Assembly (NCBI GenBank): GCA_035272805.1
Contig: DATEQI010000307.1
Location: forward strand, 1 to 52,156
From: Alphaproteobacteria bacterium
GTDB taxonomy: Bacteria > Pseudomonadota > Alphaproteobacteria > JACZXZ01
Length of the DNA stretch: 52,156 nt
Direction of reading: 5' to 3'
Below are positions 17,138 through 50,791 of the stretch, in pieces (the first letter of the stretch is position 1; each line of letters opens with the position of its first letter). The translations under genes and the position numbers were made by a program. The notes beneath the pieces are model-generated. The model saw only the letters and a program-made list of their open reading frames with translations, did no database searches and was not told where the DNA came from.

Positions 17138-17151
17138 CAGGGAATCGAGCC

Positions 17152-21888: not shown

Positions 21889-21903
21889 AGCGGCCTCCGG
21901 CAC

Positions 21904-27284: not shown

Positions 27285-27914
27285 TCAGCTCTTCTGCCTG
27301 AGCTCGACGATCTTGTCGCGCATGAGCTCGGTCAGACTCGTGACGTTGCCGTTGTTGCGTTGGAGCACCGAGGAGAACTCGGAGCGCTGCGTCACCAGGA
27401 GGCTGACCCCCTCGACCACGACGTCGATGATCTTGTAGCCGACCTGCTCCTTGCGCACGCGCCACTGAACCTCGGTCGGCTCCTCGCCTGTCTTTCCGAT
27501 TCCGCTTGTCACCCAGGCGCCGGCCTCGCCGTCGGGGCCCGTCTTGCTGACGTGGAAGCTCTCGCCGGCGTACGAGTTGAAACGCACCGCGTAAGTCTGC
27601 ACCACATATTCCTTGAAGACATCGAGGTACGCGTCCCGCTCGCTGTCTGAGACCCTGCGCCCATAGACGCCGAGAACGAAGAGCCCGATCGCGCGCACGT
27701 CGAAGCCATCGAGAAATATCGCGGCAAGCGCCTTTACGCGGTCGTCCTTGCTGAGCGACTTGTCCTTGAGGATGCGGATCACCCGCTCGGCGAGCTGGCT
27801 GACGAACTCGGATGCGGCGGCGGGAATATCCTCGGCGCGGCCCGCCCGCGGCGCCACAAGGAGGCCGAGCGCGGCGGAGGCGGCCGAGGCTAGGAATATG
27901 CGACGGTCAATCAT
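27285..27914 (-). CDS. MlaC/Ttg2D-family periplasmic lipid-binding protein (HpnM-like)
   Basis: 209 aa. Signal peptide with RR (MIDRRIFLASAASAALGLLVAPRAGRA). The body shows the toluene-tolerance Ttg2D/MlaC pattern (FDVRAIGLFVLG..., YKIIDVVVEGVSLLVTQRSEF). Confidence 0.8.
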   Translation of the reverse strand: MIDRRIFLASAASAALGLLVAPRAGRAEDIPAAASEFVSQLAERVIRILKDKSLSKDDRVKALAAIFLDGFDVRAIGLFVLGVYGRRVSDSERDAYLDVFKEYVVQTYAVRFNSYAGESFHVSKTGPDGEAGAWVTSGIGKTGEEPTEVQWRVRKEQVGYKIIDVVVEGVSLLVTQRSEFSSVLQRNNGNVTSLTELMRDKIVELRQKS

Positions 27915-28934: not shown

Positions 28935-29345
28935 CTATCGATCCCGCTCCGTCGTTGTCACGCTTCTCCAATCTGCGGGGCGCGTGACGTGCCCTGCCGA
29001 GTAACGCCTGACAGATATGTCAAGGTCCTGTTTGCTTTCCCCCAAGCGGATTTCGCCGCGCCCGGCGAGCGCCTTACTTGAAAGTACCCCTTCTTCGTCC
29101 ATCCCTCTGCCTCGCGGACGGGCGCGACGCCAGCGTTGAGCCCCAGCGTTGAGCTTAAGTGACCTAACATAGGAGGAGGCAAAAAACCAGTGGCCTGGCC
29201 TTGGCTTATCGATGCGCTTGTCCCACCTGTTGCAGATTTGTCGCGCATCGGCGACTCGGAGGCAGTTTGCCGATATTCTTTGACTTGCATTCATAAGGAT
29301 ATGTTTATATAGTTATATTTGTCTCAAGGAAGCGGGGGAAGGCAA

Positions 29346-30368
29346 ATGGCCATGGAGGAGCTGCCGCGCGCTGGCGTCGCTGCCATCGGCGAGGCGGACA
29401 TGGAGAAGCTGCTGGCGGGCTTGCGGGCGGTGGCAGAACCGACGCGGCTGCGGCTTCTCGTGCTCTCTGCCCACGGCGAGCTCACCGTGAGCGAGCTTAC
29501 CCAGATTCTCGGCCAGAGCCAACCGCGCGTCTCTCGCCATCTCAAGCTTTTGTGCGAGGCCGGGCTGCTCGAGCGCTTTCGCGAAGGCACCAACGCCTTC
29601 TATACCCTTGCCCGGCAGAGCGAGGTGGCGCGGCTGGGCGAGCTCCTCGTCGATCTCATGCCCGATCGCGATCGCACCCTTGCCCTCGACCTCGAGCGGC
29701 TTGAGGCGATCAAGGAGACGCGCAATGCCGCGGCGGCGAGGTACTTCAGCGAGAACGCCGAGCGCTGGGACCGCATCCGCTCGCTCTATATCGACGAGGC
29801 CCAGGTCGAGGCCAAGCTGCTCGAGCTCGTACCGCCGCACGGCTTGCGCGACTTCGTCGACGTGGGCACCGGCACCGGGCGCATTCTCGAGCTCGTGGCC
29901 CCCCGCGCGGAGCGCGCGGTCGGCATCGACCTCTCGCGCGAGATGCTGGCGCTGGCGCGCGCGCGCATGGAGCAGGCCGGCTTGCGCAACGCGAGCGTGC
30001 GCCACGGCGACATGTACCAGCTGCCCTGGCCGGCGGGCTCCTTCGATGCGGCCGCCCTCCACCAGGTGCTGCACTTCGCCGACGATCCTGCCGCCGCGAT
30101 CGCGGAGGTGGCGCGCGTCCTGCGGCCCGGCGGGACCCTCGTCATCGTCGACTTTGCGCCCCACGAGCTCGAATATCTGCGCACCGAGCATGCCCATCTC
30201 CGCTTGGGCCTGCGCGAGGCCGACATGCAGCAATGGTTCCGCTCAGCCGGCCTCATGCCGCAAAGCACCTCCGAGCTGCCGGGCGATCCGCTCACCGTGA
30301 TGATCTGGTGCGCGCGGCGCGTAGAGGCGGAAAAGAGACGCGCGGCACCTCAGCGCAAGGCGCGCTGA
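29346..30368 (+). CDS. ArsR/SmtB-family transcriptional regulator fused to a SAM-dependent methyltransferase domain
   Basis: N-terminal wHTH LRAVAEPTRLRLLVLSAHGELTVSELTQILGQSQPRVSRHLKLL. C-terminal class I MTase motif VDVGTGTGR ... LRPGGTLVIVDF. The stop overlaps the metF start. Confidence 0.8.
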   Translation: MAMEELPRAGVAAIGEADMEKLLAGLRAVAEPTRLRLLVLSAHGELTVSELTQILGQSQPRVSRHLKLLCEAGLLERFREGTNAFYTLARQSEVARLGELLVDLMPDRDRTLALDLERLEAIKETRNAAAARYFSENAERWDRIRSLYIDEAQVEAKLLELVPPHGLRDFVDVGTGTGRILELVAPRAERAVGIDLSREMLALARARMEQAGLRNASVRHGDMYQLPWPAGSFDAAALHQVLHFADDPAAAIAEVARVLRPGGTLVIVDFAPHELEYLRTEHAHLRLGLREADMQQWFRSAGLMPQSTSELPGDPLTVMIWCARRVEAEKRRAAPQRKAR

Positions 30369-34961: not shown

Positions 34962-35690
34962 CTACTCCGAGCAAGCGAGTTCTTCGCAGAACGTCAAGAG
35001 CGTAAACGTGACGGTGCCCTCGCTGTCTTGAATGCTGAACATCACAGGCGTTGCCTTATCGTCCATCCAGACTTCATATCGCTCCCGGCCGTCCACCGTA
35101 TCGATCTGGTACCGGCGCACCCGCGTTGCAGCGCCGTCAATCGTGATCGACGTCTCCTCGCCGCCGCTGGCAACGATCTTCGTGACGAGGCCCGTATCCG
35201 GCATCAGGACCATATCGCCTCTCAACCTACCTGCGGACCACGGACTGACTGACCGGATCGTCCCTGGTGCGGTGACCTTGCCGCTCGGGGAGGTAACGAT
35301 GAAGTGCTCGCCGTCCGCCCGACCGTCCACTTCGATTGACTTGCCGTTCTCCGTAGTAATTCCGTGAAAATAAATCAGGCGATCGCCCACCTGTCGTTCA
35401 ATACGGGAGACGTCTTGCCTATAAAGAGTGATGCCGAGAACCGAGACTTCGATATGGGCCTCCGTGGTTATCGTCGTGGCATCACGGCTTTTCTCGACAG
35501 TGTTGCTGTACGTCCCGATCGCACCATAGAAGCGGTCCTGGACGCGATATGTATATCGCTGCTGGAAGGCAGCCGCGGAGGGTCCCGCCGCGAGGAGGGC
35601 GCAAATCGCCACGGCACCGAGCAACTCCCTCGAGGTGAGCATCTTGGCCAGTACCGCCATGGCTCTCTGCCCTGCTACTTTTCTAACCAT
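34962..35690 (-). CDS. Secreted beta-rich protein of unknown function (DUF6134/DUF3108-like)
   Basis: 242 aa. Signal peptide ...AICALLAAGPSAAA, then YTYRV..RFYGAIGTY and repeated beta-strand pattern. The start overlaps the SDR stop by 8 nt. Confidence 0.6.
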   Translation of the reverse strand: MVRKVAGQRAMAVLAKMLTSRELLGAVAICALLAAGPSAAAFQQRYTYRVQDRFYGAIGTYSNTVEKSRDATTITTEAHIEVSVLGITLYRQDVSRIERQVGDRLIYFHGITTENGKSIEVDGRADGEHFIVTSPSGKVTAPGTIRSVSPWSAGRLRGDMVLMPDTGLVTKIVASGGEETSITIDGAATRVRRYQIDTVDGRERYEVWMDDKATPVMFSIQDSEGTVTFTLLTFCEELACSE

Positions 35691-36543
35691 TCGTCAATTG
35701 CTCGCTGAGCTCCCACATCCGTCTCTGCATATTCCTGTCGCATGATGCTGGACTGGACGGAACGGGAATGCATTTTTCGAAATACCTTGCGGATAGGTGA
35801 GCAACTTCCGGCGAACAGGCGAGATAGACCGAAGTGGCCGCCCCCTTCTCAGGCGTAAGGATGAAACGCATTGCGATGCCCCAGAACGGCTTGAGCAGCC
35901 GGACCGGACCGGTCGCATCGGCGAGCGTGACGATGTTGGTCGCCACATAGCCGGGGTGCAATGCATTTACGGTGACATGGCTGTCCCGAAGGCGGCGGGC
36001 AAGCTCGTACACGGTTAACAGGTTCGCAAGCTTCGCGTTGGCATAGGCATGCATGCCGACGCCATGCGGGTAGCGGCGCCGCATTTGTACGTCGTTGAAA
36101 TCAATTTTCCCTTTCTCGTGCGCGTCCGAATTGACATTCACAACACGTGAGCCACCAGTCGCCTTCAATCTATCGAGCAGCAAATTGGTCAAGAGGAACG
36201 GTGCCAGATGATTGACCGCGAGCGTCATTTCGATGCCGTCCGCGCTCTCTCGGCGCTTGGGGAATGTCGCGCCCGCATTATTTATCAGCACGTGCAGCTT
36301 CTCATATTTGCCGTTGAATTCGGCGGCCACCGCGCGGACCTGCTGCTGAACCGAAAGGTCTGCGACCATTAAATCGATTGCACCGCGTCCGGCCAGCGCT
36401 CGAATCTCACGGGCGGCATCCTCTCCTTTCTGCCTGCTTCTGCAAATGAGAACGATCGTTGCGCCCCTTTTTGCCAGCTCGAGCGCTGTGACCTTGCCGA
36501 TTCCCGAACTTGCGCCGGTCACAACGCATATTTTCTCATTCAT
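35683..36543 (-). CDS. Short-chain dehydrogenase/reductase (retinol-dehydrogenase-like SDR)
   Basis: TGASSGIGK cofactor motif, NNAG, and catalytic YANAK. Only the last 286 codons of the 704-aa track ORF are credible. Start at 36543, or at 36561. Confidence 0.85.
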   Translation of the reverse strand: MNEKICVVTGASSGIGKVTALELAKRGATIVLICRSRQKGEDAAREIRALAGRGAIDLMVADLSVQQQVRAVAAEFNGKYEKLHVLINNAGATFPKRRESADGIEMTLAVNHLAPFLLTNLLLDRLKATGGSRVVNVNSDAHEKGKIDFNDVQMRRRYPHGVGMHAYANAKLANLLTVYELARRLRDSHVTVNALHPGYVATNIVTLADATGPVRLLKPFWGIAMRFILTPEKGAATSVYLACSPEVAHLSARYFEKCIPVPSSPASCDRNMQRRMWELSEQLTNG

Positions 36544-36599
36544 GCAACTCGGATTCCCCATGGATCGTCCCCTCCTGAGGCGGGGCGATGTGCCTGATC

Positions 36600-37766
36600 C
36601 TAGAGCGCCGCCGGATCCGTGATGCCGCGGGCGTCCCTTCCATATGACGCCGGGGCCTTCAGTGCCAGGGATATGCGGGTAGGATAGCATGGGCCGAGTT
36701 GACGAAGTGCCGCGCGGAAATAGTTGCCGCGCGGCTGCGCATCTTCGCTCTCGCTCATCGCGGCGAGCGACGTCCACGGCACGCTCGGATAGCGGTGGTG
36801 GGTGAGGTGGAGATGCTGATTCATCACCAGCGGCCGGAACGCCAGCGGCAACGAGTAATTCCGAGCACGCTCTGGTTCGTCGAGCGAGACGGCGTGATGC
36901 GCGACGTTGTCCGCAAGTGAGTGCCACACGCCGCGCACGTACATTGCGGCCAACAGCATCGGCCACCATGCGCCATAGATCCACGCGCTCGCACCGTACA
37001 ACGCCAGCGTCATCGCGAACTCGCGCCGTGTCCGCCGCCGCTTGGGCACATTCAGCACCAGCGATACAAACGTACGCCGCACGTTGGTATCGCCTTCCTC
37101 GTCGATCGGGATTGCGTTTTCCATCAGGCGCACGCCGAGTGACACGGGCACGAACGCGATCAGCGACGAAGCCAGCAATCCCAGGTAAACGCCACCGAAG
37201 AGCCTTCCGCGATAGCGCAGCCAGGCAAGCGCATAGGCGCCGCGGCCGTCGTACACATCGGGCCGGTCGTAACCGTGCCGCGAAAACCGGTGATGAACCA
37301 AGTGGCAGACGCGCGTGGCGTCGAAAGGCAAGCCGTGCGTGACACTCAGAAGGCGCGCGCAAAATTCGTTGATGCGGCGTTTCGGAAGCAGGCGGGAATG
37401 GATGGCTTCGTGAATCAAGCCCCAGTGAAGCGGTTGGAGCAGCATGATCGGGAATAGGACCCAACCCGCTCGCATTCCGAAACCGCGTAGCATAAACGGC
37501 ATGCCGAACAATTGAAAAAGCGTGCCGCCGAGCACGACGCAAATGAGAAAAAGGTTGAGCCGGTAATTCCCATTTGGTCGGCTTTCTGTGGCCGAGTTTG
37601 GCCGTTTTGCGGGGTTCTCGCGGGACTTCGGCTGGGTCTGAAGCGTGCGACCCGCCCCACGATGCCGGCGGGTGTCTACATAGGCGCTGGTAACCGCCTG
37701 AGCGGCGGCAACAGAGCACAGCTCTTCTGCCGTCGGCAGCCCGATCCGGGTCTCGGTGCCCATCAT
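36600..37766 (-). CDS. Membrane fatty-acid desaturase family protein (start uncertain; 5' extension abuts an IS relic)
   Basis: Three His boxes: HEAIH, HLVHHRF and HLTHHRYP. TM helices precede box 1. The first ~70 codons are low-complexity and directly adjoin the transposase fragment. Confidence 0.75.
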   Translation of the reverse strand: MMGTETRIGLPTAEELCSVAAAQAVTSAYVDTRRHRGAGRTLQTQPKSRENPAKRPNSATESRPNGNYRLNLFLICVVLGGTLFQLFGMPFMLRGFGMRAGWVLFPIMLLQPLHWGLIHEAIHSRLLPKRRINEFCARLLSVTHGLPFDATRVCHLVHHRFSRHGYDRPDVYDGRGAYALAWLRYRGRLFGGVYLGLLASSLIAFVPVSLGVRLMENAIPIDEEGDTNVRRTFVSLVLNVPKRRRTRREFAMTLALYGASAWIYGAWWPMLLAAMYVRGVWHSLADNVAHHAVSLDEPERARNYSLPLAFRPLVMNQHLHLTHHRYPSVPWTSLAAMSESEDAQPRGNYFRAALRQLGPCYPTRISLALKAPASYGRDARGITDPAAL

Positions 37767-38178
37767 GCCGGCACAGGCGGCGACCGCAATTGGGCAATCA
37801 GCGTGAGGATGTCAGCGAACAGCTGTCGCGGCACCATGACCTCTGCCGTCTGGAGGGTGATTGTCCGGCCATGGTGGACCTTGGCGCCGATCTTTGCCAG
37901 CCTGTCGCGCAGCGTGATCATGGACGACTGTACCAGCTATGCCGGCCGCAGCGCCAGTGTGCGAACGAGGTTGGCGGACGTGGTGGAAGGCTTGTGCCAG
38001 AAAATCGGGATACAGGGCCGCCGACGCCGCGCCGTGGAGGGCGCGCTCGATGAGGGGGATCGAGACGAACTCGGCGCGGACGCCGGCGGTTTCAGTGATG
38101 AGCTCATCGTAGAAGGTTATGGGCTGGACTCCAGCTTGAGGTGCCTCTTGTCCTGCGCATGTCCTGCGCATAGCCAGG
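37763..38178 (-). mobile_element. Second IS1380-family transposase C-terminal fragment (degenerate)
   Basis: The minus strand reads ...FLAQAFHHVANLVRTLALRPA*LVQSSMITLRDRLAKIGAKVHHGRTITLQTAEVMVPRQLFADILTLIAQLRSPPVPA*. It is collinear with the C-terminus of the relic at 26380-27097 and has an in-frame stop. The upstream limit is uncertain. Confidence 0.5.
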
Positions 38179-40213: not shown

Positions 40214-40459
40214 GCGGAAGGACTTTCGATCCGAATCAAGGCCCGCCAATTGCGTGGCGATGTATGAGGTATTGTGCTAGATGTCAGAGGGTGAGAGGGA
40301 GGTACTCCGTGGGTTTGCCAAGACTCACAAGGAGCACGCCCCGATGCCGCAAGCAGCGACGATTACCCCCTTGTCCCTGGCAGAAACCCTTTCACGTTAG
40401 CCAATTGCGCGACCTCGATCATGTCCACTTGGCGTCGTCGCTTTAACTCATCAAACATC

Positions 40460-41134
40460 ATGCGCGTGCTCCTAATCGAAGATAACGAGAAACTCGCGAA
40501 ATTCACCGTCAAGGGCCTCGAGGCCGCCGGCTTCACGGCCGATTGGCTCGCGAATGGAACTGACGCGGAGAACGCGCTCAGTGACGTATCTTACGATGCG
40601 GCGATACTGGATCTGGGCCTTCCTGACATGGATGGCATGACGCTGATTGCCAAAGTCCGGCGGCGCGCGAATAACGTCCCGATCCTTGTGCTGACCGCAC
40701 GTGACGGAACAGGCGATCGCGTCACCGGGCTCAACGCGGGAGCGGATGACTATTTGCTGAAGCCATTCGCGATGGAGGAACTCGTCGCCCGCATCCACGC
40801 CATACTCCGACGTCCCTCCGATGCGCTCGATATAACGCTGGTCACGGGAAACATGATTCTCGATAGTACGAGGCGGGAGTTCCGCATCGATCAGCACGTT
40901 GTTCCGCTTTCGCGTCGTGAATTCATGGTGATGGAACACCTGATGCGACGTGTGGGCAAAGTGGTCCCCAAAACCGCAATCGAGGAGAAGACCTATGGCT
41001 TCGACGAGGAGGTTTCGCCGAATGCGGTCGAGGTGATCGTGTCTCGTCTGCGCAAGCGCCTTCGCGATTCGAATGCCAGCCAGGAAATTCTGACCTTTCG
41101 CGGGGTCGGATACATGCTCAAGGGCCTCGAGTAA
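40460..41134 (+). CDS. OmpR/PhoB-family response regulator
   Basis: MRVLLIEDNEKLA, AAILDLGLPDMDG, LVLTARD, DDYLLKPF, and a C-terminal winged helix (REFMVMEHLMRR...VEVIVSRLRKRL). Confidence 0.9.
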   Translation: MRVLLIEDNEKLAKFTVKGLEAAGFTADWLANGTDAENALSDVSYDAAILDLGLPDMDGMTLIAKVRRRANNVPILVLTARDGTGDRVTGLNAGADDYLLKPFAMEELVARIHAILRRPSDALDITLVTGNMILDSTRREFRIDQHVVPLSRREFMVMEHLMRRVGKVVPKTAIEEKTYGFDEEVSPNAVEVIVSRLRKRLRDSNASQEILTFRGVGYMLKGLE

Positions 41135-42564
41135 TGACGGTCCGCACCCCCTCATTGCTGCTGCGCATCTCGATTCGCCTGATGTTCGTGACGATTGCGG
41201 CGGCGATCATTTCGTATGCCTGGCTGTTCTACGAAATCAGATACGCCGCCGACAACGTCGCGGAGGGGAGCTTGATTACGCAAGCGCTGGAGGTCATGAG
41301 CAGCATCTTCCCGAGCAACGGCAGCGTGAGATTCAGTCTACCGGCGGAACTGAGCGGCTCGACCAGCGAGGCGGAGGGTCGTTTTCGCTATTCGGTGCGG
41401 GATGAGCTGGGAAATACGCTTTTTCAATCGAGCTGGCCGACAGCGGCGCGCGACAAGATTCGCATCCTCGACACGAAAAATCAACTCTATCAAGTGCACC
41501 ACCAGGAGCCGCAGCGCGAGAGCTTCTTCGGAGCGGTGGTTCGAACCAACATTGGCGGCCGTGTTCTTGTCGTCCAGGTCGAGCGCAACAGCCGGCACAT
41601 CGAGACGCTGATGGACACGATCCTGGTCGAATTTTTCGTTCATGGCGGCTGGCTCGGAATACCGTTCTTGCTGGCTCTTACGCTGATCAGCATCTGGACG
41701 ATCCGGGGTGCGATCGCGCCTCTGAACGAACTTTCGCGGCAGGCCGAATCGATCGGCCCGGGAACCACAGATCTTCGTCTTGCCGTGCAAGGCGTGCCAC
41801 GAGAAATCGTTCCGCTTGTGGGAGCGATCAATTCGGCGCTCGACCGCCTCGAGAAGGGCTTCTCCGCGCAGCAGGAACTCACTGCCGACGCCGCGCACGA
41901 GCTCAGAACGCCGCTCGCGGTGCTGCGTGCGCACATCGACACGTTGCCGGACCAGCAGCTTGTCGCCTCGTTGCGCGAAGACGCCGAATGTATGGAGCGC
42001 GTCGTTTCCCAGTTGCTTAGGGTTGCGCGGCTCGACGCGTTGTCGGTGGGCTCCGGCGAAATAGCCGATTTGAATGAGATTGCCGTTACTGTCGCGAGCT
42101 TCATGATTCCCTTGGCTTTGAAGGAGAACAAAGCGATCGAAGTGGCCGCCCTTGAAGTACCGTGTTTCGTGCATGGTAACCGCGAATCCATCTTTCAGGC
42201 AGTTCGCAACCTGGTGGAGAATGCGCTGCAACATATGGACCCGGGCAAGACGGTCGAGTTAGCCGTCGAAATGGCAGGCATCCTCAAGGTCATCGACCAT
42301 GGTAAGGGTATCCCGGTGAAGCTGCGCGATCAGGTTTTCAAGCGCTTCTGGCGCTCCGACCGTTCGGGCGTCGGCTCCGGCCTTGGTCTCGCGATCGTCA
42401 AGCGGACGATGGAGGTTCACGGCGGTTCGGTGTCGATTTCCGACACGCCCGGTGGTGGTGCCACATTCACTCTGCGCTTCTTGCCCCCGGCTGGCGCCGA
42501 AGCTGCGCGAGTTGTGCCGCTACCGCTCTACCGACGAGGACGGCCGGAGCGAGCCGCTGAATGA
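41134..42564 (+). CDS. Sensor histidine kinase (two TM, HAMP, HisKA, HATPase_c; QseC/PhoQ-like)
   Basis: H-box ADAAHELRTPLAVL, N-box VRNLVENALQH, G-boxes DHGKGI and GSGLGLAIV. TAATG overlap with the regulator gene. Confidence 0.88.
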   Translation: MTVRTPSLLLRISIRLMFVTIAAAIISYAWLFYEIRYAADNVAEGSLITQALEVMSSIFPSNGSVRFSLPAELSGSTSEAEGRFRYSVRDELGNTLFQSSWPTAARDKIRILDTKNQLYQVHHQEPQRESFFGAVVRTNIGGRVLVVQVERNSRHIETLMDTILVEFFVHGGWLGIPFLLALTLISIWTIRGAIAPLNELSRQAESIGPGTTDLRLAVQGVPREIVPLVGAINSALDRLEKGFSAQQELTADAAHELRTPLAVLRAHIDTLPDQQLVASLREDAECMERVVSQLLRVARLDALSVGSGEIADLNEIAVTVASFMIPLALKENKAIEVAALEVPCFVHGNRESIFQAVRNLVENALQHMDPGKTVELAVEMAGILKVIDHGKGIPVKLRDQVFKRFWRSDRSGVGSGLGLAIVKRTMEVHGGSVSISDTPGGGATFTLRFLPPAGAEAARVVPLPLYRRGRPERAAE

Positions 42565-42592: not shown

Positions 42593-43486
42593 TCATTCCT
42601 CGAACTGAAGATGGATGCCGCGCCCACTGAGCTCGGCGAGTTGGCCCGTGACCGTGCCGAATTCCGTGCTGAACTCCATCTCAACCGGGACCATCAGGTC
42701 GCCTGGCAGCAGCCGGGCGTACCAGAGCTTGCCCTCATAGGCTCCCTCGGATCGGCCGTTGCCGTCCGCAAAGCCGGCGATTGCCTGGCGCCGCATGCGG
42801 CAGACTTGGGTCGCACCGACGTCGTTGCGTTCTGCGAACGCCCGGGGGACCTCAGGTGCCGCATCGGTGAAGTAGAGGTCGTAGCGACGACGCCCGTCGT
42901 ACACGGCAACAACGAGCGCGCATGAGCCGCGATAGGCGAGGCGCCGCTCAACCAGAAAAAAAGCGGTCAGCTGATCGACGGTGCCGCGCATCAGGGTCGG
43001 AGTGACCGGCATGCGATTTTCGACCGGTGGCATCGACTCGCCGGCTACCGTGCCGTCGGCGGCGTAGTCGACCCGGTTACGGCTTTCGACCCCGTTACGA
43101 TGCACCTCGCCGCGATAGGCCTCCGGGCGTGGATCATCGATGGTAAGCCGGCCAAGCACCTCGGAGTGGCTCGTCAGATCGACGAATACGGCGGCGATGC
43201 CCCGGCTCTCGACGTCCGTCGTGATCGCATATTGATCGGCGGTTTCCTCGACCGCGGTGCGGTTGGTCGCGACGTGGAGGCCGGCGACGCCAAACATCTC
43301 GTAGCGCAAATCGATGCGCTCGGGGTCGGCCGCCCGGGCGGCGGTCAGAGCGAGCAGCAAAAATCCCGCGCTCGGCGCGGCAGCGTAAAAGCAACAAACC
43401 AGGTGCCTAAACCATGCCTTCCATGGTGCGATTTTTCCCGGCAGCGGCTGCTGCGTCAGCTCCGCGGCATTCGTCCAGTTACGCAT
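42593..43486 (-). CDS. DUF3108-like secreted protein
   Basis: 297 aa. Hydrophobic leader CCFYAAAPSAGFLLLALTAARA, then the LRYEMFGVAGLHVATN... beta-rich body typical of DUF3108. The start overlaps the flavoprotein stop by 8 nt. Confidence 0.65.
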   Translation of the reverse strand: MRNWTNAAELTQQPLPGKIAPWKAWFRHLVCCFYAAAPSAGFLLLALTAARAADPERIDLRYEMFGVAGLHVATNRTAVEETADQYAITTDVESRGIAAVFVDLTSHSEVLGRLTIDDPRPEAYRGEVHRNGVESRNRVDYAADGTVAGESMPPVENRMPVTPTLMRGTVDQLTAFFLVERRLAYRGSCALVVAVYDGRRRYDLYFTDAAPEVPRAFAERNDVGATQVCRMRRQAIAGFADGNGRSEGAYEGKLWYARLLPGDLMVPVEMEFSTEFGTVTGQLAELSGRGIHLQFEE

Positions 43487-44627
43487 TTCGGTCTAAGGCC
43501 GTTCCTGATGCGAGCAGCCGCAAGGCGAAGCCGAGGACGTCAAGTGACGCTTCCGCAGGACGAAGCGCGCCCACATGAAGGGCCAATAGGCGGCCGAAGG
43601 TGCGAGGCCGCGTCGCCAGCGTCCGCAACGCGCGCCGCCGCAAGCCGTCGTTGGCGTCCATTAGGAGCAATATGCGCGCCATCAACCGCGGCATCCGGCC
43701 CATCCGGCGATGCATAGTCTCGTATGTAGCAAGATCTCCGGCAGCGAGGGCCGCACCCAGAAGAGCTGCTTGGCGAAATGCGAGCGCGAGCCCGTCGCCC
43801 GTAACGGCGTCGACCGACCCGGATGCATCTCCTACCAACGCGATCCGGCCACGAGTTACGGCGGACAATTTGACCGACATCGAAATCGCGCCCCGCACCG
43901 ACCCCATCGGCTCGACGCCCCCAAGGCGCTTGGCGAGTCTCGGAAACAGGGCCGGCAGATTAGAAATGCGTGCTTCCTGCGCGCTGCCGATGATCGCTAT
44001 GCAAACTTCCTTTGGTCCTACCGGGGTGACATAGGCCTGGCAACGCGTGTGCCAGTGCACCTCGACAAAATCAGTCCATGGGCGTATGCGAAAGTGTTGG
44101 CGCAACCCGATCCGGCGCGCGCCATTCCAGGCCGGGTGCAACCCGGCCCATTGCCGGGCCCGGGAATGAATCCCGTCCGCGCCGACGATCCATTGGCAGC
44201 GCACCGTTCGGCCGCCGGCCTGCACCCCTGAAGAACTGAGGGCATCTATCCGCGTATTCCAACACGTCACGACGCCGGCGTCTTGCGCGCGCTCCATCAG
44301 GATTCGATGCAGCAGGGTACGGCGAATTCCCAGGCCGAAGCTATGGGGAAAGGACGCTTCAGCTTCGAGCTCGTTGTCCACAAAGCGTATACCGCGGAAG
44401 GGAAACCCGTGCTCGAGACCCAGCGCCACGCCGATCTGACGCAATGCCGCGACGCCGTCGGGCATCAAGCCTTCGCCGCAAGCCTTGTCGATCGGCGGTT
44501 GAGCCCTATCCGCAACGACAACGTCAAAGCCGCTCCGGCGAGCCGCCAGCGCGGCCGCGAGTCCGGCCGGGCCGCCGCCGATTATGAAAACCCCCGTTTC
44601 CGCGGGCGGCAGGCTCACGTTCACCAT
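43479..44627 (-). CDS. FAD-dependent oxidoreductase (geranylgeranyl-reductase / aromatic-ring hydroxylase-like)
   Basis: 382 aa from the ATG at 44627. Dinucleotide fold VFIIGGGPAGLAAALAARRSGFDVVVADR and a KACGEGL motif. The start overlaps the PKS stop (ATGGTGA). Confidence 0.82.
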   Translation of the reverse strand: MVNVSLPPAETGVFIIGGGPAGLAAALAARRSGFDVVVADRAQPPIDKACGEGLMPDGVAALRQIGVALGLEHGFPFRGIRFVDNELEAEASFPHSFGLGIRRTLLHRILMERAQDAGVVTCWNTRIDALSSSGVQAGGRTVRCQWIVGADGIHSRARQWAGLHPAWNGARRIGLRQHFRIRPWTDFVEVHWHTRCQAYVTPVGPKEVCIAIIGSAQEARISNLPALFPRLAKRLGGVEPMGSVRGAISMSVKLSAVTRGRIALVGDASGSVDAVTGDGLALAFRQAALLGAALAAGDLATYETMHRRMGRMPRLMARILLLMDANDGLRRRALRTLATRPRTFGRLLALHVGALRPAEASLDVLGFALRLLASGTALDRNA

Positions 44628-45796
44628 CGCACCAATATCATTTCCGAGCAGAAGCCCGGGCCCATGGCCAAGATCACGCCATAGGTCGCGGGTCCCGGTG
44701 GATGGTTCATCAGAACATCCTCCAGCACGACGAGAACCGAGGCGGAGGACAGATTCCCGAATCGCTTCAGGCAATCCCACGATCGCTCCAGATCGCGATC
44801 GCGCAGACCGAGGGTGTCCTGAATTGCCTCCAGCACTTTCGGACCACCCGTGTGGATCACCCAATTGCCGATATCGGCGCGACGGAGGTTGTATTTGCCG
44901 AGGAACGCGTCGACGTCTCCGGCCAGGTTTTCCCTGATCAAATCGGGCAAGCGCGGGGAAAGCACGATCTTGAAGCCGTTTTCGGAGATATCCCAACCCA
45001 TCACGTCTTCGGAGTCCGGGTAAAACACCGAGGCGCAACCCAGAATCTCCGGTCCCTCGCGCGCCGACGCACGCGTATCCGTCGACGAGTGCGCGGCCGC
45101 CCATGCGGAGCCCGCCACGATCGCCGCCGCCGCACCATCGCCGAAAAGTCCGGCTGCGATCACGTTTACCGTCGACACATCGTCGCGTCGGATCGTCAGA
45201 GAGCAGGTCTCGACGGCGAGGATCGCCGCGGTGTGCCCGGGATAGGCCCGCGTGTAGTCGGCCGCGCGGCTCAAACCAATGGCACCGCCCGCACAGCCAA
45301 CGCCGAAAATAGGCGTACGTTTGATATCCGGCCGCAAGCGCATGCGATTGATCAGCCGTGCATCGAGCGAGGGGCTTGCGATACCGGTTATCGAGACCAC
45401 GAACAGCGCATTCAGATCGTGCCGGGACATCCCGGCATTATCGAGAGCTTCATCGATCGCACGGATCCCCAGCTCCTGCGACACCTCGAACCAGGCATTA
45501 TTTGTCTCGCCCCATGACGTAAACTGCGCATATCGCTCCAATGGAAAGGCCAAATGGCGACATTCGACCCCTACACGCGAGTGGAGCCGCTCGAGCAGTT
45601 CCGCACTTTGCAGCTTGCCCCCCCAATAAGACTTAAGGGCCGCACTTATAGCCTCCTGCGAAAACCGATGCTCGGGCATCGCACTCGCTACACCGACTAT
45701 TCTCATTGCCGTTGCTCGCTTCCGTGGCCCGCATGCTTTTGGCGCCTCATCCGCATTGTCTCGATAAGCAAGCTCGGCATCCTCATGTCGCTTCAT
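44621..45796 (-). CDS. Type III polyketide synthase (chalcone/stilbene synthase family)
   Basis: Cys-His-Asn triad contexts GVGCAGGAIGL, VIHTGGPKVLE and FGNLSSASVL. AGGAGA lies 5 nt upstream of the ATG at 45796. Confidence 0.88.
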   Translation of the reverse strand: MKRHEDAELAYRDNADEAPKACGPRKRATAMRIVGVASAMPEHRFSQEAISAALKSYWGGKLQSAELLERLHSRVGVECRHLAFPLERYAQFTSWGETNNAWFEVSQELGIRAIDEALDNAGMSRHDLNALFVVSITGIASPSLDARLINRMRLRPDIKRTPIFGVGCAGGAIGLSRAADYTRAYPGHTAAILAVETCSLTIRRDDVSTVNVIAAGLFGDGAAAAIVAGSAWAAAHSSTDTRASAREGPEILGCASVFYPDSEDVMGWDISENGFKIVLSPRLPDLIRENLAGDVDAFLGKYNLRRADIGNWVIHTGGPKVLEAIQDTLGLRDRDLERSWDCLKRFGNLSSASVLVVLEDVLMNHPPGPATYGVILAMGPGFCSEMILVRW

Positions 45797-45883
45797 ATGA
45801 TCTCCTGCGAATTCCGGCGCCCTCGCCGCTTGTTGGCGAAGGCGCGAATACCGGCGGGACAGGTGTCGAATCGCCGCTTCCGG

Positions 45884-47251
45884 TCATAGCGACGTCATCA
45901 CGCGTCTCGCGAGACCGAGTCCTTCGGACCAAAATCTGTTGGAGGTATGCATCGAATCCACAATCTGCTCGATCGCACGCACGAACTGGTCGAGCTGCGC
46001 ATCATCGATTGCAAGCGGAGGAGAAATCTTCAACACCATGAAGTTGTTGCCGCAAATCTGGCAAAGTATTCCGTGATCCCGGAACATCCGCATCACCACG
46101 ATCTGCCCGAATATTGCCGGATGAATTTTCGCAAATGCCTCGAAGGGCATTCGAAGCTTGAGAGAACGAGGAGCCCTGAACTCGATTGCGTTCAATAGGC
46201 CGAGCCCCCGAACCTCGCTGATCATTTCATATTTCGCCAGACGCTCTTCGAGTGTGCGGCGGAGATTCTCGCCCGACGTCGTCGCGCGCCGCCCGAGCCG
46301 CTCGTCTTTTAGAATATCCAGGGTGACCAAGCCGGCGCGCATCGCGAGGCCGTTTTCGCTGAAGGTGGAGGTGTGGATGAGCGCGCGCTGCAGCGAGCTG
46401 AAGACAGAGCGGCAGACGGCATCGGACATCAGCACGGCACTGCATGGCACCAACCCGCCGCTAAGCGCTTTGGCCAGAACGACCATGTCGGGCTCGACGC
46501 CGAAGTGGTGTGCAGCGAGGAAAGGGCCAGTCCTATGGAGGCCGGTTTGAACCTCATCCAGGACGAAGAGCGTATGGTAACGGCGGCAAAGTAATTGAAC
46601 GGTGGAGAGGTACTCCTGCGGCGGCATGAGAACGCCGCCCTCGCCCTGGATCGGTTCCAGTATGAATGCGGCGAAAGATTTGGTGGCGAGCTTGCCCTCC
46701 AGCCCCTCGGTGTCGCCATACGGAATGAAATCTACGTTGGGGAGCAACGAGCCGAATCCTTCCTTCCAGAAGCTATTCGACATCAAGGAGAGCGCCCCGC
46801 ACGTGAGACCATGGAAGCCCCCGGCCGCGCACAGAATATCGGGGCGTCCGGTGTGCGCACGGGCGAATTTGATGGCAGCCTCGATGCCCTCGCTGCCCGA
46901 GCTCCCGAAGAAGGCTTTGCCGAGGCGACCGCCGGCGAGCTCGCAAAGCGCCGCGGCAAGTTCCCCTGCGAGCTCGGCAACGTGGCTCTGCAGCATCGCC
47001 GGCCCGGCCTTATCAAGCTCGTCTTTGAGAGCCGCGACGGCGCGGGGATGATTGTGGCCTATGTTATGAACGCAGTACCCTGAATTGAAGTCCAAAATTC
47101 TTCGGCCGTCCGCCGTATGAAGTTCGGCTCCGCTACAGCGCATGTAACTCACGTTCATCTGCAATACGTCGAGCAATCTGACCCATTGTGGATTGACGTA
47201 ACGCTCGTAGAGACCCGCCGGACGATTGTCGCTACGGATTGCTCGTAACAT
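45884..47251 (-). CDS. Class III PLP-dependent aminotransferase
   Basis: 455 aa. GSEGIEAAIKFAR, DEVQTGLHRTG, and PLP-lysine block DMVVLAKALSGG. AGGAGG lies 5 nt upstream of the ATG. Confidence 0.88.
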   Translation of the reverse strand: MLRAIRSDNRPAGLYERYVNPQWVRLLDVLQMNVSYMRCSGAELHTADGRRILDFNSGYCVHNIGHNHPRAVAALKDELDKAGPAMLQSHVAELAGELAAALCELAGGRLGKAFFGSSGSEGIEAAIKFARAHTGRPDILCAAGGFHGLTCGALSLMSNSFWKEGFGSLLPNVDFIPYGDTEGLEGKLATKSFAAFILEPIQGEGGVLMPPQEYLSTVQLLCRRYHTLFVLDEVQTGLHRTGPFLAAHHFGVEPDMVVLAKALSGGLVPCSAVLMSDAVCRSVFSSLQRALIHTSTFSENGLAMRAGLVTLDILKDERLGRRATTSGENLRRTLEERLAKYEMISEVRGLGLLNAIEFRAPRSLKLRMPFEAFAKIHPAIFGQIVVMRMFRDHGILCQICGNNFMVLKISPPLAIDDAQLDQFVRAIEQIVDSMHTSNRFWSEGLGLARRVMTSL

Positions 47252-47406
47252 ATGAGCCTCCTAAATATTCCAGTGCACGTGATTAGCTTTGCCGCTGCGA
47301 GCTAGAACATCGACGGCGCGTAGCGCTTTTTCACCGCGCCGGTGACGGTGGACAAACCGGCAGCGCCGGCGCCGATAACACGAGAGCTTGAGGGCGAACG
47401 CTTCGC

Positions 47407-48270
47407 TCATTCAGATTGCCTCTCGTGCCCGGCTTGCCGGCGCTTGTAGAGAACCGGTATCAGCGCAAGCACTGCAAGACCTGCGATCGGCAACAGCACG
47501 CTCGGCCGAAACACAATGCCGAGATCGGGTGCCCGGCCCGCTGCGACGACGTCGCCCATGCCGGTGCCGAGAGAGACAAAGACGAAGCTGCCCGGAATGA
47601 TCCCGAGGAAAGTGCCGAGGACATAGATGGCAAGCCGCATGCCGGCGAGTGCCGCGACGAGGTTGACAAGCCAAAACGGAAAAATCGGAATGAGGCGCAA
47701 GACCAGGAGATAGTTGAACGCGTCGGCGCGGAAGCCGGCTTTGAGCCGGTTCGCGCGCGGTCCGGCACGCTTGGCGAGGCCGCCGAGTCCGGCTCGCGCA
47801 GCGAGAAAGACCGCCGTCGCTCCGATTGTCGCGCCCATGACCACATAAAGGAGGCCCGGCCAGAGCCCGAACAGGAAGCCGCCGGCGATCGTCAGGATCG
47901 CGCCGCCGGGCACCGATACCGCCGTCTGGCCCGCGTAGACGGCAATGAAGCAGAGTGCTGCCACCACGCTCGAGCGCGCCACCAGCCCGCGCATCCATTC
48001 GCTGTTCTCCGCGAGCGCGGCGAACGTCAGGTAATGACGCCCGCCGAGAAGCATGAACAAAGCGCCGGCCACGGCGAGAAGCAGCAGCGGCAACAGACGC
48101 CGGACCGAAATGGCGTGTGACGACGAAACATCGCCACGCTTGAGAGAGCGTTGAGAACCGGTCACAGCGCGCGGTGCGTTGTTCGCGCGGCCGCTGATAG
48201 CCGCGTCCGTGGGCAAGCGGGGGAGCGTCACGCGATCATACCCGCTCGGGCGCCTGAGCGGTCTTCGCAT
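47407..48270 (-). CDS. TVP38/TMEM64 (DedA-related, SNARE-associated/VTT domain) membrane protein
   Basis: Polytopic. FNYLLVLRLIPIFPFWLVNLVAALAGMRL is the VTT-domain re-entrant signature. The ATG at 48270 overlaps the upstream gene by 35 nt; the GTG at 48165 is an alternative start. Confidence 0.75.
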   Translation of the reverse strand: MRRPLRRPSGYDRVTLPRLPTDAAISGRANNAPRAVTGSQRSLKRGDVSSSHAISVRRLLPLLLLAVAGALFMLLGGRHYLTFAALAENSEWMRGLVARSSVVAALCFIAVYAGQTAVSVPGGAILTIAGGFLFGLWPGLLYVVMGATIGATAVFLAARAGLGGLAKRAGPRANRLKAGFRADAFNYLLVLRLIPIFPFWLVNLVAALAGMRLAIYVLGTFLGIIPGSFVFVSLGTGMGDVVAAGRAPDLGIVFRPSVLLPIAGLAVLALIPVLYKRRQAGHERQSE

Positions 48271-49132
48271 AGGTCGCGGTGTCGTTCAGCCGCCAATCGT
48301 AAGCGTCTGCGGAAATGGTCTCGAAGGCTGCCAGCATCCGCGCGGTGATCGGATTGGCAAATCGGCGAAGATGGGCGAGAACGCCTTGCCAAGTGCCGTC
48401 AAAATCCTCCTTGTACCAGCTGTATATCGATGAGACCGTAAGGCCGCCGGCTTCGGCCCTCGCACCTCGCGGGTGATTGACGTAGAGGCGCGCTCCGCGA
48501 TCGAGCATGGCTTCCAGATTGGCGGCGGTGAAGGGGGCCGGCATCAGCGTCGGACACCCGATCGAGGCGCAATTGACCGCATAATGGATACGGTTGTCTT
48601 TGAACAGCGGCCGCAAGATGCGATGTTCGATGTCATCGAGTGCTAACGCTTCGCCTTCGATCTGGGCAAGCTTGGCCTGCCATGGCCCCGAGCCGCCAGT
48701 GATGAAGGTCGGGAGGAATGAGCCGCCAAGGGAGAGCTCGCGGATCGACGCCACGGGATAATGGTCGAGAACGACCTTGACCGTCAGCGCATTGTAAAGA
48801 TTTACCCAGTAAGCGAATTGCTCTGCCGGGTTCAACGAGTGCACCGGCACCTTGGACATCTCCTCGAGATACCGCTCCAATGCCCGTCGATCGAGGACGG
48901 ACACTTCACCGTAGCGCAGTCGATTTATCCCGTCCGGCTCCTCGATGAGATAGCGGCGCAGGAATATCCCCCAGGGTTCATGATCAATGACGGCCCGGGA
49001 GGTCGGGTCGTTCGCCGCCCACTTCTGCCAAAGTCGCGCGGTCGGAGCCGATAGTCCTGATCGCGATGCGAGGGAGCTCGCGATCAATGCGAGACCTCCG
49101 CCAAGCACTGCGCGTCGTAAGATGGGTCTCAT
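48236..49132 (-). CDS. DUF547 domain protein, secreted
   Basis: YWVNLYNALTVKVVLDHYP...IEHRILRP...RIHYAVNCASIGCP is the DUF547 core. The start is set at MRPILRRAVLGGGLALIASSLA, a Tat-like signal. Confidence 0.75.
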   Translation of the reverse strand: MRPILRRAVLGGGLALIASSLASRSGLSAPTARLWQKWAANDPTSRAVIDHEPWGIFLRRYLIEEPDGINRLRYGEVSVLDRRALERYLEEMSKVPVHSLNPAEQFAYWVNLYNALTVKVVLDHYPVASIRELSLGGSFLPTFITGGSGPWQAKLAQIEGEALALDDIEHRILRPLFKDNRIHYAVNCASIGCPTLMPAPFTAANLEAMLDRGARLYVNHPRGARAEAGGLTVSSIYSWYKEDFDGTWQGVLAHLRRFANPITARMLAAFETISADAYDWRLNDTATYAKTAQAPERV

Positions 49133-49210
49133 CGACAAGCACCTCGCCGCTATTGCGTCATGATGGGACAAAGGCGTCCCCGTCGTTCCTGCCGCAGACG
49201 GCAAGCAACG

Positions 49211-50791
49211 CTAGTTGCCGCTCACCCGCGGCCGGTTCGGAAGGTCAGCCGGCGGCAGGATCTCAAATCGCCGCTCGATCAAATACGCGTCGTCGAACTG
49301 ACGTCGGCCGACCAGCGCGGTGGCGTGCCGCCCCCATTCCCGCATGGCGCCGGCGTCCTCGATGCCCAACGGCCAGGTGAACAGCCGCTCACCGCGATCC
49401 GTGCCGGACACGATGCCATTCGCTCCGAAGGCGCTGCGCGTGCCCTCGGCGGTTGGAAGCGTTCGCAGTTCGCTGTCATCCGCCATGGTGTAGATCACAC
49501 CATGGTTGCCGGTGTCCGGGTGAACGTCGGTGAGATAGTGGCTGCGGCTTGTCACACGAACGAGAACGCGCTGGGGCGCCTCAAGTGCGGGCAGGGCAAG
49601 CGGCACGAATGCCCATTCGGCCTGCGGGTCCGGCGCCGGCAAGGGTCTTACCCGCGACGTCGGGAAGAACATGTGGTAGCAGCCGCAAAGGTGGATTGAG
49701 TCGTAGACGAGCGGGCGCCCCGATTGATCCAAAGTCACCCGAAAGACGATCCCATCGAGCTTTCCCGACAACAGGTCCAACGAGCCGCTCTGCGGGCGCT
49801 CCGGAAACCAGATCATGTAGATCAGCTGGACGAGAGTCCGTTCGCCGTAGCGCGTGAAAGCGAGGCGGCGATACACGGTGGGGCGCGAAACCTCCACCTC
49901 GGGTGCTTCGCCGGCACCCCATTTTAGAGGCCCGAACCGATCGTACTGACCGGTGGTCTCGATCTCGAATACGGGAGCGAACGTCGCGAACAAGATCTCG
50001 CTCTCGCGCTCGCCAAATTGCGGGATGCCGAGCGCATCCGCCCTTGCATTTGCGATAATCGAGGAAATACGCTCGGCCGGCGCGGCGTTGTCCGACGGCT
50101 GGTATCGAACGAGATCCTGTTGCGCGGCGGTCCCCGCCGCCGCATGCTGGAACATCGCGGTCGCTTCGTCCTGCCATCCCTTGGCAAATTCGAAGAACAC
50201 TGCGCTGACGACGGAATATAACCCCACAAGGCGCTTCCAATCGGCATAGTCATCCGGCACCTGCGCGCGCTCGACTAACATGCTTTTCCGTGAAGCGGTC
50301 GTTGCATCAAGCCTCGCTAGAGCAACGGCACATCGATCGGTACGTGCCGCCGCTTGCGACGGACTCTTGACTCCAAGGCTCGTCAGCAGATGCGGCGGCA
50401 GGTTTTTCAGCTCGTAACTGCGGGCGCGTTGGTCGAGTTCTCTCAGCCGATTCTCCCATGCCGCAAAGGCGGGCGAATCTATTTTTGCCTGCTCTCGAAA
50501 CGACGCCAAAAAGCGGTTGACGCGCAGATAGGGAAATCCGGGAATTCGATATGCCTCGGCGTCGCGGACGCCCGCGCTGTCGACAATTTCATCGAGCGTC
50601 GTGAACCAGCCCGCACACTCTTGAACGTCCGCCGACCCGACCTCGAAATTAGAGCGAAGAGGCTGGTCGATCGTTGCGCAACTTACCGCCGATAGCATTG
50701 CCCCGGCCGAGAGAAGTAGTGCGAGACTGCGTCTCCGGCTCCAAGCACGATGCGATAAGCACATGGCGGACGCTCTAGCTTCGCAGTTCAA
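49211..50791 (-). CDS. Large lipoprotein of unknown function
   Basis: 526-aa ORF. Signal plus lipobox LLLSAGAMLSAVSC. No catalytic motif recognised. Coding-like codon bias. Confidence 0.55.
   Translation of the reverse strand: MNCEARASAMCLSHRAWSRRRSLALLLSAGAMLSAVSCATIDQPLRSNFEVGSADVQECAGWFTTLDEIVDSAGVRDAEAYRIPGFPYLRVNRFLASFREQAKIDSPAFAAWENRLRELDQRARSYELKNLPPHLLTSLGVKSPSQAAARTDRCAVALARLDATTASRKSMLVERAQVPDDYADWKRLVGLYSVVSAVFFEFAKGWQDEATAMFQHAAAGTAAQQDLVRYQPSDNAAPAERISSIIANARADALGIPQFGERESEILFATFAPVFEIETTGQYDRFGPLKWGAGEAPEVEVSRPTVYRRLAFTRYGERTLVQLIYMIWFPERPQSGSLDLLSGKLDGIVFRVTLDQSGRPLVYDSIHLCGCYHMFFPTSRVRPLPAPDPQAEWAFVPLALPALEAPQRVLVRVTSRSHYLTDVHPDTGNHGVIYTMADDSELRTLPTAEGTRSAFGANGIVSGTDRGERLFTWPLGIEDAGAMREWGRHATALVGRRQFDDAYLIERRFEILPPADLPNRPRVSGN

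Follow-up and report, generated by a model that had tools for sequence, protein, structure and literature searches.

Organization of the locus

We analysed a 52,156-nt contig (DATEQI010000307.1, assembly GCA_035272805.1; 'the window' refers to this whole stretch) from an alphaproteobacterium, and focus on a minus-strand gene cluster in which a class III aminotransferase, a type III polyketide synthase (PKS) and a flavoprotein follow one another. The original prediction had described these genes and a downstream DUF3108 gene (42593-47406) as a four-gene operon, and had proposed that they encode a phenolic or pyrone lipid pathway with an unusual amination step. The open reading frame (ORF) list places three further genes upstream on the same strand; families were assigned with Pfam and NCBIfam profiles against their curated cut-offs. 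In 5' to 3' order, the cluster comprises:

49211-50791, minus strand: lipoprotein of an unnamed family, 526 aa, without a Pfam or NCBIfam match
48236-49204, minus strand: DUF547 protein, 322 aa, with a signal-peptide-like N terminus (Pfam DUF547, 77.4 bits)
47407-48270, minus strand: VTT (DedA/TVP38-type) membrane protein, 287 aa (Pfam VTT_dom, 82.2 bits)
45884-47251, minus strand: class III aminotransferase, 455 aa, the first gene of the conserved triad
44621-45796, minus strand: type III PKS, 391 aa from the ATG at 45796
43479-44627, minus strand: flavoprotein, 382 aa from an in-frame ATG
42593-43486, minus strand: DUF3108 protein, 297 aa

Reading the junctions directly, we found that the aminotransferase starts at TAGGAGGCTCAT-ATG, with AGGAGG 6 nt ahead of the ATG, and that the PKS starts at GCAGGAGATCAT-ATG with AGGAGA, 87 nt past the aminotransferase stop. 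The PKS and flavoprotein genes share 7 nt (ATGGTGA) at their stop and start, and the flavoprotein is translationally coupled to the PKS; an 8-nt overlap (ATGCGTAA) joins the flavoprotein stop to the DUF3108 start. The tight arrangement of the four genes, the strong Shine–Dalgarno sequences ahead of the first two and the short stop/start overlaps linking the last three were thus all as first described. The reported lack of a methyltransferase also held: Pfam detects none between 42593 and 50791, and the nearest is an ArsR-methyltransferase fusion at 29319-30368. The last 155 nt of the stretch assigned to the operon, up to 47406, carry no conserved feature. Scanning for promoters and terminators between 42300 and 51200 returned the same counts as shuffled sequence, so that operon boundaries could not be derived in this way, and an Rfam scan of the whole window gave zero matches.

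A conserved aminotransferase-PKS-flavoprotein triad

To place the cluster in a wider context, we used GTDB with one genome per species, in which 446 stretches encode relatives of the PKS, and took the best 80 loci with 10-kb flanks (individual loci are cited by their L numbers). Each locus was scored by tblastn with every window protein, counting the aminotransferase at 50% identity or above. The flavoprotein lies directly 3' of the PKS in 70 of the 80 loci. The aminotransferase is present in 64, at 60-91% identity, and in 41 it immediately precedes the PKS in the same orientation. Both partners occur together in 62 loci, and in 53 of the 66 that have flanks of at least 3 kb on each side. Carriers of the gene triad include Alphaproteobacteria (Xanthobacteraceae, Rhodomicrobium, Bradyrhizobium and Stellaceae), Binataceae, one metagenome-assembled genome (MAG) of the Methylomirabilales and many Acidobacteriota, among them the cultured Paracidobacterium acidisoli 4G-K13 (L062). 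Between phyla, the aminotransferase is more conserved (60-74% identity) than the PKS (51-73%). Because of these co-occurrence counts and the identity of the aminotransferase across phyla, we conclude that the conserved unit is the aminotransferase-PKS-flavoprotein triad and not the set of four genes.

The expectation that all four genes would be conserved together was therefore correct for three of them. A DUF3108 gene follows the flavoprotein in only four loci, those of the nearest relatives (L001, L002, L004 and L031), whereas a YceI-like protein occupies this position in 24 of the 80, mostly in Acidobacteriota; DUF3108 is a lineage-specific accessory outside the conserved core. A secreted tetratricopeptide repeat (TPR)-like protein is often found between the aminotransferase and the PKS. 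Many Alphaproteobacteria carry another accessory module beside the triad, consisting of a T_hemolysin-family protein (PF12261), an AMP-ligase, a Haem_oxygenas_2 di-iron enzyme, a short-chain dehydrogenase/reductase (SDR) and a secreted TPR protein (L005, L006, L010-L016, L019, L021, L023-L025, L027, L029, L030, L032 and L053). An S-adenosylmethionine (SAM) methyltransferase is sometimes added, and the position of the module varies, either upstream or past the regulator/kinase pair described below. In the window, a 50-codon remnant with 46% identity to the di-iron enzyme (37968-38114, minus strand) looks like a decayed copy of its gene.

The upstream genes show a more restricted association. 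Seven loci combine the triad with DUF547 and the 526-aa protein (L001, L002, L004, L018, L022, L031 and L034), and VTT adjoins it in L001 and L004. In L086, the genes run in the order DUF547, 526-aa protein, aminotransferase, PKS, flavoprotein; the first three overlap stop-to-start, the aminotransferase start overlapping the stop of the 526-aa gene, and the PKS begins 19 nt past the aminotransferase stop. In L001, the closest relative of the window, only about 45 nt separate VTT from the aminotransferase. Given the company that DUF547 and the 526-aa protein keep with the triad, the packed operon of L086 and the short VTT-aminotransferase spacing in L001, the transcription unit in the lineage of the window probably comprises all seven genes, from 50791 to 42593.

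The VTT-aminotransferase spacer of the window also contains a 52-codon, Arg-rich ORF (47252-47410, minus strand), the ATG of which overlaps the VTT stop and the stop of which overlaps the Shine–Dalgarno site. It is deleted in L001 and is probably no gene.

The polyketide synthase

The PKS scores well above the Pfam cut-off for chalcone synthases (Chal_sti_synt_C, 70.9 bits, and Chal_sti_synt_N, 60 bits, against a cut-off of 27), and FAE1_CUT1_RppA is matched as well. The Cys-His-Asn catalytic triad noted originally is retained: Cys168, His315 and Asn348 align with the corresponding residues of Mycobacterium tuberculosis Pks11 and do not vary in an alignment of 123 sequences. With these residues and scores, the protein belongs to the type III PKSs of the chalcone synthase superfamily. 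The closest solved structures are Pks11 (4jao; E 4e-91), to which it is 42% identical, and then the alkylresorcinol-forming CylI; identity to a Streptomyces Srs-type PKS is 43%. Judged by these residues and relatives, the enzyme appears intact and of the long-chain phenolic-lipid type.

In this family, the mode of cyclisation has been traced to a single position, at which Trp281 of ArsB goes with resorcinol formation, and Gly284 of ArsC and Leu266 of Pks18 go with pyrones (PMC7064976, PMC9927152). The window PKS has Trp268 here, 47 residues N-terminal of His315, which is the same spacing as between Leu266 and His313 in Pks18, and this Trp is invariant in the alignment. Because an invariant Trp stands at the ArsB-281 position, as in resorcinol formers of the ArsB type, we predict that the product of the PKS is most likely an alkylresorcinol.

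The start of the protein is ambiguous. Most homologues align only from residue 25-31 or so, many being 351-361 aa long, and the alternative Met31 (45706) corresponds to the start of most of them. We also considered a 3,5-dihydroxyphenylacetyl-CoA synthase (DpgA), as in dihydroxyphenylglycine formation, and rejected it: the PKS reaches 201 bits against an NCBIfam cut-off of 425, the aminotransferase is of the wrong class, and no DpgB, DpgC or DpgD gene was found near the PKS.

The flavoprotein

The mechanically called flavoprotein ORF (541 aa, extending up to 45104) is an artefact of an open upstream frame; in the 382-aa protein starting at 44627, the GGGPAG FAD-binding motif begins at residue 17. 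The protein matches FAD_binding_3 at 75.4 bits (cut-off 22) and carries the motifs GGGPAG17, DKACGEG, GADG149 and GDASG266. The original label, geranylgeranyl-reductase-like, captured the DKACGEG Cys motif, which does resemble that of geranylgeranyl reductases, but the score against the geranylgeranyl reductase family TIGR02032 (105.3 bits) lies below the cut-off of 158.8, and another kinship fits better. Searching annotated plasmids by tblastn gave two matches, both from Streptomyces. One of them lies in a cluster of Streptomyces sp. NBC_00184 that encodes, in this order, UbiA, a type III PKS, an ICMT methyltransferase, a FAD monooxygenase and methyltransferases, and the flavoprotein is 44% identical to this FAD monooxygenase over 289 aa, DKACGEG included. 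Similarity to solved structures is restricted to that of group A monooxygenases in general, among them MHPCO (1e-12) and 6-hydroxynicotinate monooxygenase.

Operons of the Srs (Streptomyces griseus srsABC) and PkQ (Mycobacterium smegmatis pkqABC) type convert an alkylresorcinol to an alkylbenzoquinone, first by methylation and then by hydroxylation (PMC9927152). On the strength of its homology, the protein is better described as a putative FAD-dependent oxidoreductase of the Srs/PkQ-operon type with group A monooxygenase motifs.

The aminotransferase

The aminotransferase matches Aminotran_3 at 304.7 bits (cut-off 30.5), and Asp232 (LDEVQTG) and the Lys261 that binds pyridoxal 5'-phosphate (PLP; LAKALSGG) are invariant among 64 sequences, as in class III enzymes of fold type I. 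Its NCBIfam matches all fall far under their cut-offs, and none is a beta-alanine, gamma-aminobutyrate (GABA) or ornithine equivalog. The top one is the C-terminal domain of PigE, the aminotransferase of prodigiosin biosynthesis (401 bits against a cut-off of 850), and PigE is also the best match in the PDB (4ppm; E 8e-80). With 455 aa, the catalytic domain alone and a score this far short, it is not a PigE, and no PigD-like gene was detected by tblastn in the window or the 80 loci.

Among annotated relatives, the best is the product of the last gene of a Streptomyces hopanoid cluster (shc, hpnH, ispG, dxs, aminotransferase), with 41% identity over 97% of its length. Identity to a Ralstonia PigE-like protein is 40%, and the triad aminotransferase, the hopanoid-cluster enzyme and the PigE-like protein are mutually about equidistant; the window encodes a second class III aminotransferase (17152-18525), which shares only 27% identity with the triad enzyme. 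Position 408 separates these proteins: it is Lys in 59 of 62 triad aminotransferases and in the hopanoid-cluster enzyme, and Arg, as is usual in class III, in the Ralstonia protein and in the second aminotransferase of the window. The enzyme may belong to the HpnO group, given the 41% identity and the common Lys408 with the Streptomyces enzyme, its sole comparator here, but tblastn with Streptomyces queries found no match to shc or hpnH in the window or the 80 loci. Taken together, these comparisons assign the enzyme, at the level of its sequence, to a single-domain PigE/HpnO-like subgroup. PigE aminates an aldehyde on a lipophilic molecule. HpnO acts likewise on a lipid-bound aldehyde (PMC4263297, PMC12583986).

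Envelope accessory proteins

The remaining proteins of the cluster, which flank the cytoplasmic triad, share an envelope theme, with MlaA, VTT and DUF547 all in the vicinity of the operon. The DUF3108 protein (PF11306; 49 bits, cut-off 26) begins with a hydrophobic helix that ends ...LTAARA/ADP. In its AlphaFold model (predicted local distance difference test 85.5), this helix is followed by about 15 strands that form a beta-barrel-like body, for which the best fold match is Brucella DUF1849 (6ntr; TM-score 0.46-0.57), with weaker matches to LolA, LolB, LprG and VioE. Because of this modelled fold and the gene context, the protein may bind or carry a hydrophobic molecule in the periplasm. Homologues with 52-54% identity in L084 and L085 (8001-8825) adjoin genes for a B12-binding radical SAM protein and FtsX/MacB-type ABC proteins, an uncharacterised neighbourhood that looks related to envelope lipids. 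BLASTP detected no relation between DUF3108 and the DUF6134 protein encoded at 34962-35690.

The 526-aa lipoprotein, with a lipobox Cys38, contains an invariant His367-x-Cys-Gly-Cys-x-His373 motif. It belongs to a family of 1214 homologues, all unnamed and about 510-530 aa long, in which many Trp, Arg and Asp residues are invariant as well. A fold search of the PDB with its confident AlphaFold model (predicted TM-score 0.81) gave no match (best E 0.43). The protein always adjoins DUF547, both with the triad (L086, 9001-10533) and without it (L087, 9001-10551).

Regulation, expression and habitat

A two-component system assigned by Pfam and NCBIfam converges on the operon, with 28 nt between the kinase stop and the DUF3108 stop:

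40421-41134, plus strand: OmpR-family response regulator
41134-42564, plus strand: HAMP/HisKA sensor kinase

Of the 80 loci, 20 have a related regulator and kinase pair no more than 10 kb from the PKS, including the Acidobacteriota loci L054, L062 and L072. In P. acidisoli (L062) the pair sits between the aminotransferase and the PKS, and in L086 it is divergent and just upstream of the operon. The adjacent OmpR-type regulator and histidine kinase probably control expression of the operon.

Matches to the window occur in soil and peat metagenomes, and a single run covers 90% of the sampled words of the 4.8-kb region. Only one metatranscriptome run, from soil, contained any of the sequence, in the form of three contigs of 175-220 nt that match at 98-100% identity to the flavoprotein (44392-44566), the PKS (44975-45191) and VTT (47642-47861). 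This suggests that the three genes are expressed in soil, in a library that may contain DNA. Gene overlaps and spacing are consistent with an operon, and these three short contigs constitute the RNA evidence.

Other genes in the window

A block related to hopanoids and inositol lipids extends from 13543 to 24546. It includes an inositol-3-phosphate synthase (13543-14760), a HAD hydrolase, a nucleotidyltransferase, the second class III aminotransferase (17152-18525), a CDP-alcohol phosphatidyltransferase-like gene (19541-20797), HpnL (20713-21888) and HpnN (21904-24546, over its equivalog cut-off). It is followed by genes resembling HpnM/MlaC (27285-27914) and MlaA (27927-28934). Three more genes with a lipid theme share the strand of the operon and lie on the far side of the two-component system and MlaA (34962-37766, minus strand); they encode a fatty-acid-desaturase/AlkB-family membrane enzyme (36600-37766), an SDR (35683-36540) and the DUF6134 protein (34962-35690). 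The set is syntenic in L001 and is not kept with the triad elsewhere. In principle, a hydroxylase and a dehydrogenase could together provide the aminotransferase with an aldehyde.

Base composition changes along the contig. Between about 34900 and 51300, GC content is 0.59-0.635 and GC at third codon positions 0.67-0.77, against 0.66-0.70 and 0.82-0.90, respectively, in most of the remaining window; a second low-GC stretch lies at 24.9-26.8 kb. The segment bearing the operon may have been acquired horizontally. Elsewhere, a Fic/DOC-domain protein (9361-10851, plus strand) adjoins two small ORFs (11092-11322 and 11335-11634) that, from size and arrangement only, look like a toxin-antitoxin pair.

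A proposed pathway and its alternatives

We propose, with a probability of roughly 45%, that the locus is a phenolic-lipid cassette akin to Srs, PkQ and the related Hid, in which amination takes the place of methylation and periplasmic lipid-binding proteins handle the product. The PKS would extend a long-chain fatty acyl starter with malonyl units, and the chain would be cyclised, most likely by aldol condensation to an alkylresorcinol, as Trp268 suggests, an alkylpyrone also being possible. The flavoprotein, by homology, would hydroxylate the ring to give a hydroxyquinol or benzoquinone. Filling the slot of the methyltransferase, the aminotransferase would convert a polyketide carbonyl (a ring keto tautomer, a quinone carbonyl or a side-chain carbonyl) to an amine, which would yield an aminated lipid of the phenolic or quinone type. 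VTT, DUF547, the 526-aa lipoprotein and DUF3108 (in Acidobacteriota, a YceI-like lipid-binding protein) would then move this lipid or hold it in the envelope, and the OmpR/kinase pair would control expression. The originally predicted pathway is backed by the type of the PKS, the homology of the flavoprotein and the co-conservation of the aminotransferase, whereas its amination step and its product stay putative.

A more specific version of this scheme holds that the triad makes an amino-substituted polyketide benzoquinone, in that an alkylresorcinol is aminated where Srs and PkQ O-methylate it and is then hydroxylated and oxidised. By analogy, this would be the same methoxy-to-amino change that leads from ubiquinone to rhodoquinone, achieved by PLP transamination and not by the SAM-dependent RquA. 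Such an aminoquinone could act in the membrane as a low-potential electron carrier where oxygen is scarce, in microsites inhabited by peat and soil Acidobacteriota, Binataceae and Alphaproteobacteria. We regard this version as a long shot.

Several observations weigh against amination of a phenolic lipid. The amination is the weakest step, because the triad contains no obvious aldehyde-forming enzyme and the subgroup to which the aminotransferase belongs acts on aldehydes. With no such enzyme in the core, only a ring keto tautomer or a quinone carbonyl would be left as the group to be aminated, and PLP transamination of a carbonyl on a resorcinol or quinone has no precedent known to us. The GGR-type (geranylgeranyl reductase) Cys motif makes a reductive role of the flavoprotein possible, and the common Lys408, together with the HpnN, HpnL and HpnM-like genes some 20 kb distant, makes a hopanoid role possible for the aminotransferase. 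Sixteen of the 80 loci have no aminotransferase within 10 kb, and seven Binataceae loci (L036, L038, L039 and L042-L045) lack both partners. Three short contigs are too little to establish co-transcription. The Trp rule is itself imperfect, because DquA and Pks11 have the Trp and yet yield pyrones (PMC9827899).

The hopanoid link leads to an alternative that we consider unlikely, in which the aminotransferase leaves the polyketide alone and is an HpnO-type enzyme of aminobacteriohopanetriol synthesis, or another lipid-aldehyde enzyme, placed beside an ordinary alkylresorcinol/alkylquinone pair under a shared, regulated programme of envelope-lipid remodelling. Its closeness to the enzyme of the Streptomyces shc/hpnH/ispG/dxs cluster, the Lys408 common to the two and absent from PigE-like proteins, and the HpnN, HpnL and HpnM-like genes in the window would all fit. 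The host phyla produce hopanoids, and published surveys report 'hpnO' matches in Hyphomicrobiales and Acidobacteria that lie outside hpn clusters (PMC12583986, PMC5462960). However, none of the 80 loci has shc or hpnH within 10 kb of the PKS, and the window has neither gene, whereas the aminotransferase directly precedes the PKS in 41 loci and is tightly packed with it in L086. The hpnO of Rhodomicrobium, moreover, is an argD-like gene of about 1.2 kb beside hpnN (PMC4263297), whereas the Rhodomicrobium MAG loci have the 455-aa enzyme inside the triad. Distance does not favour HpnO either, as identity to the hopanoid-cluster enzyme (41%) is about the same as to PigE (40%).

The likeness to PigE, the closest characterised and solved relative, points elsewhere, namely to an N-heterocycle made by the logic of coniine, koreenceine or the 2-methyl-3-n-amylpyrrole (MAP) branch of prodigiosin. 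The aminotransferase would aminate one carbonyl of a linear or pyrone tri- or tetraketide released by the PKS, spontaneous ring closure would give a cyclic imine or pyridone, and the flavoprotein would oxidise or hydroxylate this to a lipid of the alkylpyridine or pyridone type. In prodigiosin synthesis, amination by PigE is followed by ring closure and FAD-dependent oxidation. In coniine and koreenceine formation, a polyketide synthase and an aminotransferase are reported to cooperate (PMC9584964, PMC6498172), and the solved relatives of the flavoprotein include the pyridine-ring oxygenases MHPCO and 6-hydroxynicotinate monooxygenase. That structural similarity is weak and generic to group A, however, and the real homologue, at 44%, is of the Srs/PkQ type; the invariant Trp268 and the likeness to Pks11, CylI and Srs argue for ring-forming phenolic-lipid synthases, and the core has no aldehyde-making reductase. 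We find this route more doubtful still. We are at least as sceptical of an ordinary Srs/Ars-like alkylresorcinol or alkylpyrone pathway with a nitrogen-free product, and judge it very unlikely; here the aminotransferase would supply or remove a precursor (an amino or oxo acid for the starter or the malonyl-CoA pool). A PKS and a flavoprotein alone suffice for known alkylquinone chemistry (PMC9927152), and eight Acidobacteriota loci have the two without an aminotransferase. Tailoring of the starter unit is suggested by the AMP-ligase, di-iron enzyme, SDR and T_hemolysin protein linked to the triad in many Alphaproteobacteria. Yet of the three proteins the aminotransferase shows the highest conservation between phyla, which would be unusual for a dispensable supply enzyme, and it falls in the lipid-aldehyde subgroup and not in a beta-alanine, GABA or ornithine equivalog.

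Comparison with known systems

If the amine does land on the polyketide, the product would belong to a class of envelope lipid new to bacteria and PLP chemistry would have gained a new use; the redox or charge properties of the product could matter in acidic, oxygen-poor soils. The triad occurs in at least three abundant, mostly uncultured soil and peat phyla, and the cultured P. acidisoli 4G-K13 makes the cassette testable. DUF3108, DUF547 and the unnamed 526-aa HxCGCxH lipoprotein gain a functional context. The original prediction had not recognised the combination from any characterised cluster, and full-text literature, in which subscription journals are thinly covered, likewise gave no characterised equivalent of an aminotransferase, type III PKS and flavoprotein cluster.

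Individual genes do have counterparts in known systems. The aminotransferase resembles PigE over the catalytic domain, as its best NCBIfam and PDB matches and the roughly 40% identity to the Ralstonia protein attest, but it lacks the N-terminal domain of about 380 aa (PigE has about 840 aa) and a PigD-like neighbour dependent on thiamine diphosphate, and has Lys408 in place of Arg. With the HpnO-like enzyme of the Streptomyces hopanoid cluster it shares overall similarity and Lys408; it differs in that none of the loci examined links it to shc, hpnH or hpnG. The PKS is of the same enzyme class as those of Azotobacter vinelandii ArsABCD and as Pks11 and Pks18, with the same catalytic triad and the same Trp/Gly/Leu determinant position, whereas the cluster has other tailoring genes than Ars and no partners resembling the type I fatty acid synthases ArsA and ArsD.

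The nearest overall model is the Srs/PkQ/Hid group, whose methyltransferase-oxidoreductase-PKS arrangement is also known from cyanobacteria (hidABC) and planctomycetes (PMC10896814) and which supplies membrane phenolic lipids and alternative respiratory quinones. As in these systems, a long-chain type III PKS and a homologous FAD oxidoreductase share one operon, the two proteins being 43% and 44% identical, respectively, to the Streptomyces NBC_00184 pair; the PKS has Trp at the ArsB-281 position, and the expected product is a membrane phenolic lipid or quinone (PMC9927152, PMC10896814). The cluster differs in having neither an ICMT-type (SrsB/PkqB) nor a class I SAM-type (HidA) methyltransferase, and tblastn found no ICMT or UbiA homologue in the window or the 80 loci. 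Its hosts belong to Gram-negative soil phyla, and it comes with periplasmic accessory genes and a two-component system. In every characterised Srs, PkQ or Hid version the ring is tailored by methyltransferases, whereas here the conserved third gene encodes a class III aminotransferase, in the order aminotransferase-PKS-flavoprotein.

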